A stretch of 64,000 nt of DNA from Ostreococcus lucimarinus (taxonomy: Eukaryota), in the NCBI GenBank assembly GCA_000092065.1, contig CP000581.1. One strand, given 5' to 3'. A program made the translations under genes and the position numbers. Numbering within the stretch: the first letter of the stretch is position 1; each line of letters starts with the position of its first letter. Below are positions 15,674-17,394 of the stretch, one piece after another. A model generated the notes under the pieces. It did no database searches. It had not been told where the DNA came from and worked only from the letters and a program-made list of their open reading frames with translations.

Positions 15674-16786
15674 CTACCCGCGGGTCGGCCTGCCTACGCG
15701 CCCGGACGATCGATCCGGCGCGCGGCGCAAAAACTCGTCCATCGCGAGCACGCGCATGTTCGTGTCGTCGACGCGCATCAGAACGTACGGTTTGGGCGAG
15801 CCCGGGACGACGCGCGCGACGCCGCTGGCGTCTCGCGTCTCGACGGCGTCGCCGCGCTCGGAACGAATCTCTAACAAGCGCACGCTCGGCCTGTGAACGT
15901 ACAGCGCGCCCGTGTCGGCGTCGAACGCGAACGTGGCGTCGCGACACCCCTTGATGATCGCTTTCAGTCTCAGCTTGCCGTGACTCAGGATGCGAAAGAG
16001 CAATACCCTGCGCGTCTCGTCGCCGACGGCGAAGCAGTCGCGCTCGGCGCAAATCTCAAATCTCGTGTACCGTCGCGGCGCGTCCACGAACGCGCAGTTC
16101 CACGTCGGCTTCTCTCGTTTCAGCGCGCTCACCTCATCCATATCCACGCCCTCGTACTCCCCCACCGCGTCCTCGCTCACGTCGGCGTCTCGGTCCACGA
16201 ATGTCTTCGCCACGCTCAGCGCCGTCGACGAAAACTTTCGTAACATCGCGAGTCCACCGCCGAGCGCCGTCTCGCGCTTCCCCGCGTCGTCGCTCGTCGC
16301 CGACGTCGACGCGATCGCCGCCCCTCCCACCGCGATCAGCGTCGTCGTCCCATCGTTCGCTCGCGCCGCGCCCGCGCACGCCGTCATCGGCGCCAGCCGC
16401 GGGAGCGTCCACCGCCGCGTCGCGCGTCCCGTCCTCGCGTCCCATCGCACGCACCGCTCGACGCTCGACGCGTACTCCCCGCACGCGCGAACGACGCGCG
16501 CGACGTCCACGCGCGTCTCCACGCCTCGAGTCGTCGCGACGTAGCCCGCGTCGTCGCCGACGACGACGCCCGTCGCCGTCGCGGCGCAGCACGCGATGGG
16601 GACGTCGCGCGCGAGCGCCGCCTCGCGCGCGTCCGACCGGCGCAGCGCGCGCGGGTCGCGACGCGAGCGGTAATACAGCGCGCCGTCGCGATACGCGACG
16701 CACTCGACGTCGACGTCGGCGCCGTCGAACGCGGCGGACATCGCGGTCTGGCGGTTCGCGTCGGCGTCGCGCGCGACCCGTAACAA
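15674..16786 (-). CDS. Hypothetical protein. Beta-rich and possibly a propeller-like fold.
   Basis: 370-aa ORF with normal amino-acid diversity (W, Y, F, C, N). No motif recognised. Confidence 0.45.
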   Translation of the reverse strand: MLRVARDADANRQTAMSAAFDGADVDVECVAYRDGALYYRSRRDPRALRRSDAREAALARDVPIACCAATATGVVVGDDAGYVATTRGVETRVDVARVVRACGEYASSVERCVRWDARTGRATRRWTLPRLAPMTACAGAARANDGTTTLIAVGGAAIASTSATSDDAGKRETALGGGLAMLRKFSSTALSVAKTFVDRDADVSEDAVGEYEGVDMDEVSALKREKPTWNCAFVDAPRRYTRFEICAERDCFAVGDETRRVLLFRILSHGKLRLKAIIKGCRDATFAFDADTGALYVHRPSVRLLEIRSERGDAVETRDASGVARVVPGSPKPYVLMRVDDTNMRVLAMDEFLRRAPDRSSGRVGRPTRG

Positions 16787-16822
16787 CGCGCGCGCGCGCG
16801 CGCGCGACGCGTGACCTCCGAA

Positions 16823-16839
16823 AACGGTCCCATATATTA
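16823..16839 (+). promoter_or_regulatory. GGTCCCATATATTA element immediately 5' of the U6 snRNA gene. Resembles the plant pol III upstream sequence element (USE) fused to a TATA-like sequence.
   Basis: Plant U6 promoters carry a USE (RTCCCACATCG) and TATA. Here both-like sequences sit abnormally close to the predicted 5' end, so the function is uncertain. Confidence 0.25.
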
Positions 16840-16840
16840 C

Positions 16841-17043
16841 GTCTTATCTTCGGATATGACACCTGATAAACTGGAAAAAAATACAGAGAAGATTAGCATG
16901 GCCCCTGCGCAAGGATGTGAGTGTTCGCTCGGACGCTCGCGCCGCGCACGCTCGGACTCGAGCGACGACGCCTATGCGCGGCGACTGACGGTCGCGTCGC
17001 GCGCGAATCGCAGGACACACAATAACTCAAGAAAAGTTACACG
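16841..17043 (+). ncRNA. U6: U6 spliceosomal snRNA gene, apparently split by a 97-nt spliceosomal-type intron. Exon 1 is 16841–16916 and exon 2 is 17014–~17043.
   Basis: Exon 1 carries the 5' stem-loop with CTTCGG loop, …CTGGAAAAAA, and the invariant ATACAGAGAAGATTAGCATGGCCCCTGCGCAAGGAT (16881–16916). Exon 2 GACACACAATAACTCAAGAAAAGTTACACG matches the U6 3' region (compare human GACACGCAAATTCGTGAAGCGTTCCATA). A T8 run follows. Confidence 0.8.
16917..17013 (+). other. mRNA-type (spliceosomal) intron inside the U6 snRNA gene
   Basis: GTGAGT donor at 16917. ACTGAC branch motif at 16984–16989, 25 nt before the acceptor. CAG acceptor at 17011–17013. Joining the exons restores the canonical U6 sequence …GCAAGGAT|GACAC…. 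Confidence 0.7.
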
Positions 17044-17051
17044 TTTTTTTT
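17044..17051 (+). terminator. T8 run: RNA polymerase III terminator for the U6 gene
   Basis: TTTTTTTT immediately after the U6 3' exon, as in other U6 genes. Confidence 0.65.
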
Positions 17052-17075
17052 GATTCGATTCGATTCGATTCGACG
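17051..17075. repeat. (GATTC)5 pentanucleotide microsatellite abutting the U6 terminator
   Basis: tgattcgattcgattcgattcgac read directly. Confidence 0.8.
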
Positions 17076-17394
17076 CGATTCGCGTCCGACGACCCGCAGA
17101 CGACGACGGACGTCCGGCACCACGACGCGCACGCTCGGATCGTTCGTGCGCGCGGCCGCCGCGCGCGCGCTCGTGCGAAGCGCGCTTCGCGTCGCGCGAG
17201 GCGCGCCGGACGAGGGCGCGCGACGCGCGATTCGCGACGAAATCCGTCGGCACGCCGAGTCGAACGCGTCGGCGGCGTCGCGCGGCGGCGCGTCGGAGGC
17301 GTCGCGCGCCGCGCACGCGATGAGCGAGGGACGGCGACGGTTGAAGGAGCTCGAGGAGATGATGCTGATGGTGAGGTAGGGGACGCGCGCGACG

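Follow-up and report, generated by a model that had tools for sequence, protein, structure and literature searches.

A putative U2-type spliceosomal intron in the U6 snRNA gene of Ostreococcus lucimarinus and the different intron sites of its orthologs

The locus described here raises the question of whether a U6 snRNA gene that is interrupted within its catalytic part can be a working gene with a genuine spliceosomal intron and, if so, how the intron came to lie where it does. Introns in U6 genes are a classic genomic argument for the position of U6 in the spliceosome's active site and for the reversibility of splicing. Many fungi, Schizosaccharomyces and Rhodotorula/Rhodosporidium among them, have such introns, which lie close to the ISL and the ACAGAGA box and are interpreted as having arisen by reverse splicing (PMC5855946). 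In the window, by which we mean the whole stretch of 64 kb that was analysed, positions 16841-17051 on the plus strand most probably represent the U6 snRNA gene of Ostreococcus lucimarinus with a 97-nt U2-type spliceosomal intron between the equivalents of U80 and G81, which is presumably removed from the transcript. Judging from the sequence, we assign this reading a probability of roughly 0.9. The gene has the following features, with a slash marking each splice junction:

16841-16916, plus strand: U6 exon 1, 76 nt, ending at the bulged U at 16916 (equivalent of yeast U80 and human U74)
16841-16860, plus strand: U6 5' stem-loop, GTCTTATC-TTCG-GATATGAC, with G16841 as the first nucleotide
16883-16889, plus strand: ACAGAGA box, within exon 1
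16895-16897, plus strand: AGC triad, within exon 1
16917-17013, plus strand: predicted U2-type GT-AG intron, 97 nt, GGAT/GTGAGT...CAG/GACAC
16917-16923, plus strand: 5' splice site GTGAGTG, kept in lineages A and A2
16983-16990, plus strand: branch site GACTGACG, with ACTGAC at 16984-16989; A16988 is the branch nucleotide and precedes the 3' splice site by 25 nt
17011-17013, plus strand: 3' splice site CAG, with AG at 17012-17013
17014-17043, plus strand: U6 exon 2, beginning GACACACAATAACTCAAGAAAAGTTACACG, with the remaining ISL 3' strand (GACAC) and the 3' domain
17044-17051, plus strand: T8 run, Pol III terminator and U6 3' oligo-U
17052-17071, plus strand: (GATTC)4 tandem repeat immediately 3' of the terminator, differing in copy number among haplotypes

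All hallmarks of U6 were found, namely the 5' stem-loop, the ACAGAGA box, the AGC triad and, after removal of the intron, the bulged U of the ISL followed by GACAC. Exon 1 carries the 5' strand of the ISL, its loop and the initial part of its 3' strand, and its 3' end reads ...GGCCCCTGCGCAAGGAT at 16916. The 3' strand becomes complete only when the 97 nt are removed, which recreates GGAU/GACAC, and joining 16916 to 17014 in silico gives a 114-nt RNA that is collinear with human U6 through GGAUGACAC. The terminal T run varies from T6 to T9 across all lineages. In the Rfam search, RF00026 (U6, gathering score 44) matched 16841-16917 with 60.2 bits (E=1e-12) over model positions 1-73 of 105, stopping at the donor, and was the sole family above its gathering score in the 64 kb. 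Exon 2 by itself, which is too short and divergent, received no score against Rfam in an E-value scan of 16780-17120, and the low matches in this interval to CRISPR-DR28, U4 antisense, Gl_U6 and sR32 lay below threshold and were dismissed as noise. Standard annotation of non-coding RNAs misses the window U6 or truncates it to model positions 1-73. The preliminary description of this DNA had placed the 5' half of U6 at 16841-16916, directly followed by GTGAGT, and had recognised the insert of 97 nt with its ACTGAC and CAG, the second exon with the T8 run, and the restoration of the conserved U6 junction by removal of the insert. Each of these elements was found again at the same place, and the Rfam match that ends at the donor agrees with the proposed break.

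The numbering follows the human and yeast U6 sequences, which were checked by ACAGAGA, AGC and the bulged U standing at their textbook positions. On this basis the intron site, which is directly 3' of the bulged ISL uridine, falls between what we take to be U80 and G81 of yeast U6, and U74 and G75 of human U6. U80, the bulged residue of the ISL, is a ligand of a catalytic metal and takes part in a base triple with the AGC triad (PMC5855946).

The requirement for GT and AG leaves a single possible placement of the intron boundaries in the window gene. For O. lucimarinus, Irimia & Roy (PMC2483917) give GTGCGTG as the 5' splice-site consensus and report, for EST-confirmed introns outside chromosome 2, ACTGAC in 87% and the extended GACTGACG in 66.5%. 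Compared with this consensus, the branch site of the U6 insert is exact and its donor, GTGAGTG, has one mismatch. Because GACTGACG occurs only 10 times on the plus strand of the 64 kb, and because the spliced RNA is collinear with human U6, the signals of the U6 intron go beyond chance. The beta-tubulin gene at about 48.69-50 kb offers a comparison within the window; it contains three introns after a 5-nt first exon (ATGCG), with the donors GTGCGT, GTACGT and GTACGT and the branches GCTGAC or GACTGAC. The U6 insert had earlier been likened to two beta-tubulin introns with regard to both donor and branch motif. The CTGAC branch motif does match, but the introns number three instead of two and none of their donors is GTGAGT. 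The broader proposal of an mRNA-type intron inside the ISL region is supported by its place in the ISL 3' strand, by the host consensus and by the comparative data presented below, and it is retained here as the probable reading.

The identity of the organism and of the locus can be read from the neighbouring genes. A Cwc2-like protein encoded at 18409-19539 on the minus strand, 1.36 kb away, shares 100% identity across 376 aa with XP_001415803.1 of O. lucimarinus CCE9901, and a 632-aa flanking ORF together with 8.6 kb around U6 is 100% identical to a Logan contig. Micromonas, to which the GC content had pointed, was rejected as the source on account of the Cwc2-like protein. Orthologous loci were located in metagenome and SRA assemblies through the proteins encoded nearby and through a single DNA scan. 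All of those fetched have the genes in the order SAS-6, Cwc2, SET, U6, X, and the window U6 is the ortholog of the U6 gene that occupies this slot throughout the genus. The fetched flanks of Bathycoccus-like (L026, L027) and Micromonas-like (L024) loci, reached via Cwc2 homologs, were free of U6. In the P0020 lineage the contigs end before U6, one candidate from the metagenome scan (L014) was rejected because its similarity to U6 was a 20-nt chance match, and a scan of viral contigs gave no matches.

The comparison of these loci revealed a marked difference between exons and intron. Among the lineage-A haplotypes (n=7), the exons are invariant, and indels cluster at the centre of the intron, which accordingly measures 97-99 nt. 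Lineage A2, with 96% protein identity, has an intron of 110 nt at the same site. Between A and A2 the exons are identical at 113/114 positions (99%), as opposed to 64% identity in the intron and 57-62% in the flanks; exon 2 is the same in both, while the flanks diverge. In the deeper lineages, identity amounts to 78-87% for the mature sequence and to 33-49% for the introns, the latter being comparable to the flanks. The contrast between exon and intron identity gave Fisher p values between 1e-6 and 1e-16, and the 5' stem-loop is preserved by compensatory changes across lineages. The six intron-bearing lineages have introns of 97-145 nt, each with a single CTGAC located 25-33 nt from the 3' splice site, and the 5' splice site, branch site and 3' splice site are retained in every one of them, despite a divergence of the intron similar to that of intergenic DNA. 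Since the exons are conserved while the intron diverges like the flanks and nevertheless keeps its splice signals, the comparison supports a functional U6 gene with a real intron, whose exons appear to be under strong purifying selection, and argues strongly against a pseudogene.

A disrupted U6 pseudogene with an inert insertion, accompanied by a functional U6 elsewhere, is accordingly a reading that we consider highly improbable. It could draw on the size of the genome portion inspected, which is 64 kb, and on Rfam giving just a truncated match to U6. A decaying pseudogene next to an intact copy had also been named in the preliminary description as the scenario that would speak against an intron, and it is contradicted by conservation across at least five lineages: both exons are invariant or nearly so whereas insert and flanks diverge, the splice signals persist wherever the intron occurs, and the syntenic slot of another lineage of the genus, lineage F, is occupied by a complete U6 without an intron. 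Furthermore, the metagenome scan found 5 Ostreococcus contigs with the intron-bearing junction and 0 matches to the spliced junction with the lineage-specific exon 2, and in O. tauri each spliceosomal RNA gene has reportedly been found in one copy only (Davila Lopez et al. 2008, as cited by Irimia & Roy, PMC2483917). The scan and the O. tauri report suggest that the window U6 is the only U6 gene, although a further U6 copy, lacking the intron and having a diverged 3' tail, may lie elsewhere in the genome, of which 64 kb are covered here. A split U6 is not a common artefact either, because all 20 U6 copies of unrelated environmental eukaryotes, found on 16 eukaryote-derived contigs mis-binned in bacterial MAGs, are uninterrupted at the point at which the window gene has its intron.

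We attach hardly any weight to the view that the insert is removed or tolerated without the spliceosome, be it as a tRNA-type endonuclease intron, a group I/II intron, a mobile introner or the gap of a two-piece U6. Introner families do occur in related Mamiellophyceae (Micromonas; PMC3879977 and PMC4540971). However, no second copy of the intron was found in the 64-kb window, where BLAST returned only short, low-complexity GC matches, and its classification as a repeat or introner was rejected for this reason. Rfam likewise gave no group I/II intron or other RNA family in the window, and neither a terminator nor a promoter was found between the halves. It also speaks against removal by other means that GT..AG and the exact branch consensus of the host, at a distance typical of the host, recur in six lineages.

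If the gene is expressed as we propose, Pol III would synthesise a precursor of ~211 nt through the intron to the T8 terminator, and pre-existing spliceosomes containing mature U6 would excise the intron by means of GUGAGUG, the branch GACUGACG (A at 16988) and CAG. The product would be a mature U6 of ~110-114 nt that is collinear with every other U6. Both transcription by Pol III and splicing in vivo are predictions by analogy, based on the established biology of U6 and on the precedent of S. pombe. The U6 intron contains no T run of 4 or more, and T4+ runs amount to 0 in 729 nt of introns from the six lineages; for sequence so rich in GC this is no surprise, the joint probability being ~0.4 under shuffling, so T-run avoidance was rejected as evidence for Pol III and is at most compatible with it. 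In view of a very small, intron-poor genome and the reportedly single-copy snRNA genes, splicing of its own catalytic RNA may be indispensable to the cell.

The U6 gene of S. pombe (Tani & Ohshima 1989; Frendewey et al. 1990) resembles the window gene in several respects. It is a Pol III-type gene with a short GT-AG intron in the catalytic part, the intron has signals of the host type and its removal restores canonical U6, and the gene is probably single-copy. Both introns also contain a conserved internal element, which in S. pombe is the B block (PMC5855946), whereas the conserved intron core in Ostreococcus is an unconvincing B box. The two further differ in that the intron of the fungus lies next to the AGC triad and that of the green alga beyond the bulged U, in the 3' strand of the ISL, and in that splicing was demonstrated in S. 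pombe and is predicted from sequence in the window. The literature searched in full text, with the Canzler 2016 survey represented by a summary, contained no U6 intron outside fungi and none for Ostreococcus or Micromonas, in line with the earlier suggestion that such an intron was possibly undescribed in algae. The window feature is therefore apparently the first green-algal U6 intron, and as such it would mean that U6 introns are not a peculiarity of fungi.

The second part of the question concerns the position of the intron, which is not the same in all lineages. Given GT-AG boundaries and an invariant mature sequence, its placement is unique in each of the six lineages, and four sites are occupied in addition to one lineage in which the intron is absent:

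Lineages D (L018) and G (L028): GCAAG/GT...AG/GATGACAC, site -3 relative to the window (yeast G77/G78)
Lineages A and A2 (window, L008, L012, L013): GGAT/GT...AG/GACAC, site 0 (U80/G81)
Lineage C (L015-L017): GGATG/GT...AG/ACAC, site +1 (G81/A82)
Lineage E (L019, L020): CACAATAT/GT...AG/CTCTTG, site +13, just 3' of the ISL
Lineage F (L035; 3' half also in L023): intronless, with a full and continuous U6 in this slot

A comparison of U6 loci in related genomes with regard to intronless copies had been recommended in the preliminary description, and it yielded the syntenic ortholog of lineage F, a natural control for the gene with its intron removed. This U6 scores 83.5 bits over RF00026 positions 1-105, with a further match to positions 48-105 for the 3' half, to which exon 2 of the window gene is homologous, and its contiguous sequence is identical to the mature window U6 at 93/114 positions. 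In the NJ tree, F is the sister of A and A2 with 70% support, and therefore a precise loss of the intron in F is implied; alternatively, the intron may have been gained after F diverged, as the deep nodes of the tree have bootstrap values of 14-31%. In the sister lineages C and G (100% bootstrap, 90% protein identity), the first ~45 nt of the introns are nearly identical (GTGCGTCG...) and the core is the same, yet the sites lie 4 nt apart. The exonic GAUG follows the intron in G and precedes it in C. To judge by these sequences, the shift between C and G looks like a relocation of the whole intron with its ends intact rather than a creeping of the boundaries via cryptic splice sites.

Whether the introns at the four sites have a common origin can be assessed by comparison with fungi. 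The U6 introns of Rhodotorula/Rhodosporidium and other fungi (Tani & Ohshima 1991; Canzler, Stadler & Hertel 2016) reportedly likewise occupy variable positions around the ISL and ACAGAGA, are present or absent among relatives, and are attributed to reverse splicing at the active site. They are, however, described as evolutionarily unrelated and often species-specific, whereas the Ostreococcus introns share a core and, in the sister lineages, near-identical 5' parts, which points to the relocation of a single intron. That the four sites instead result from independent insertions of unrelated introns is in our estimation rather unlikely. It would agree with the opinion, given by PMC5855946 as that of Canzler et al. 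2016, that most fungal U6 introns were inserted independently and gather around the catalytic core, with the weak support of the deep nodes and with the identity of just 33-49% between deep-lineage introns outside the core. Against it stand the block CGCACG[CT]TCG..GA[GA]CG, which is the only internal block common to the introns of all six lineages and is about equally far from the 5' splice site in each, and the resemblance of the C and G introns in spite of their different sites. From the shared core, the four sites and the precise absence in F it follows that the intron changed its site and was lost, or gained, as the genus radiated. An apparently related intron at four nucleotide-resolved sites together with an intronless ortholog goes beyond the unrelated insertions described for fungi.

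What comes nearest to this pattern is intron sliding in the U3 snoRNA genes of fungi (PMC5832005), in which similar introns are found at slightly shifted positions, and shifted positions in orthologs are also known as intron sliding from protein-coding genes (PMC5587772 and PMC2891723). Ostreococcus differs from sliding in that the exon is essentially invariant, so that the positions are exact to the nucleotide, with shifts of 1, 3, 4 and 13-16 nt, and in that the whole intron moves with its termini intact and without conversion of intron into exon.

As a tentative explanation, one ancestral U6 intron, kept for its conserved element, could have hopped repeatedly around the catalytic centre of U6 by reverse splicing, reverse transcription and gene conversion. 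The excised intron lariat would reverse-splice into a mature U6 that has itself been spliced before and resides in the spliceosome, the resulting RNA would be reverse-transcribed, and the single-copy gene would be replaced through gene conversion. The bonds entered would be G77/G78, U80/G81 and G81/A82 in yeast numbering and one just 3' of the ISL, and the same route with spliced U6 as the template would erase the intron in lineage F. Reverse splicing into U6 has reportedly been postulated from fungal genes by Brow & Guthrie and by Tani & Ohshima. Conceivably, though with considerable doubt, such a route would account for the relocation with intact termini, for the sites gathering near the metal-binding U and for the intron's precise loss in F. 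If it is true, Ostreococcus would hold a stepwise natural record of the spliceosome reversing on its own catalytic RNA. The series of sites on either side of the metal-binding U and the absence in F make relocation and loss directly testable in a non-coding gene of invariant sequence.

The conserved core of the intron leads to the question of the promoter, for which three further features have to be considered:

16945-16964, plus strand: intron core CGCACGCTCG.., putative hairpin CGCTCG-GACT-CGAGCG
17125-17139, plus strand: second core copy CGCGCACGCTCGGA, 74 nt past the terminator, kept in A and A2 only
16828-16840, plus strand: TCCCATATATTAC, TATA- or USE-like, at -13 to -1 and abutting +1, conserved only in A and A2

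No upstream element is conserved across the lineages: there is no TATA at -30, no USE and nothing else at -30 or -60. The USE consensus of O. lucimarinus snRNA genes is CCCRTAA (PMC8287931). The core is found 28-43 nt from the 5' splice site, which corresponds to +106 to +127 from the gene start, and is possibly a promoter or factor-binding element. Compared with the B-box consensus GGTTCGANNCC, the variants GCTCGGA, GCTCGAA and GTTCGTA match 5-6 of the 7 core positions (core GTTCGAA). The intronless lineage F is without the intronic copy of the core. The core could equally be a binding site for two divergent Pol II genes, with U6 inside their shared upstream region. The 6-bp hairpin shows one compensatory pair, C-G to U-A in lineage E; covariation was rejected as evidence for it, as 79/500 shuffles do equally well. 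The 11-mer GCACGCTCGGA has two occurrences in the 64 kb, both of which are located at the U6 locus.

In the window, the intron core, the block conserved within the U6 introns of Ostreococcus-like lineages, occurs a second time downstream of the gene. This copy and other features of the window are:

16789-16806: (GC)n run, just upstream of U6 in the short interval that separates it from the X gene
17052-17071 (+): (GATTC)4 tandem repeat, directly 3' of the U6 terminator
17125-17139 (+): second copy of the U6 intron core (CGCGCACGCTCGGA)
18409-19539 (-): Cwc2/RBM22-type splicing factor with Torus and RRM domains, matching XP_001415803.1 at 100% identity
48696-49302 (+): 5' part of beta-tubulin, with a first exon of 5 nt (ATGCG)

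The second core copy lies 74 nt 3' of the U6 terminator, just ahead of the SET-side ORF, and is kept only in lineages A (that of the window) and A2. The 11-mer GCACGCTCGGA of the core has two occurrences in the 64 kb, both at the U6 locus. A related sequence was found at the intronless U6 of lineage F:

L035 5810-5820 (-): CACGTTCGTA, gene positions -7 to +3

It matches exactly the form that the core takes in lineage E, and its presence there could be due to chance or to a relocated element. The beta-tubulin gene of the window contains three introns, with the donors GTGCGT, GTACGT and GTACGT; in each intron a GCTGAC or GACTGAC branch precedes the 3' splice site by approximately 32-36 nt.

The order SAS6-Cwc2-SET-U6-X is kept across all Ostreococcus-like lineages, and in the window 1.36 kb separate U6 from the Cwc2/RBM22-type gene. 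In yeast spliceosomes, the U6 ISL is contacted by Cwc2. On a Bathycoccus-like contig this gene order is only partly kept, with no U6 at the corresponding place.

Canonical eukaryotic U6 genes were also present on 16 contigs filed as bacterial MAGs (L038-L053, genome_contigs scan), including a 493-kb contig of 23% GC under a Sediminibacterium label (L038) and one with three tandem copies spaced ~900 bp apart (L043); these contigs look like eukaryotic contamination of the MAGs. In short-read metagenome assemblies, the recovery of U6 loci is limited by contig breaks in the U6 core, as seen at the ends of L002, L023 and L028, which break within the invariant core, likely because this ~40-nt sequence is common to co-occurring eukaryotes.

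The GATTC repeat has three copies in other lineage-A haplotypes as opposed to four in the window, and GTTC repeats take its place in lineage A2. The (GATTC)4 repeat loosely resembles a B box (GATTCGATTCG versus GGTTCGANTCC). A CRISPR-DR28 match at the (GC)n run was sub-threshold and was rejected as spurious. Two further lineages carry other sequences downstream:

L018 (lineage D), ~48 nt 3' of the U6 terminator, locus minus strand: partial duplicate of U6 exon 2 (ATGACACACAATAACTCATTGAAAAG), 26 nt
L019/L020 (lineage E), 3' of the U6 terminator: array of TTTTTTAGGCA-like repeats

The lineage-E array adds many T runs after the U6 gene.
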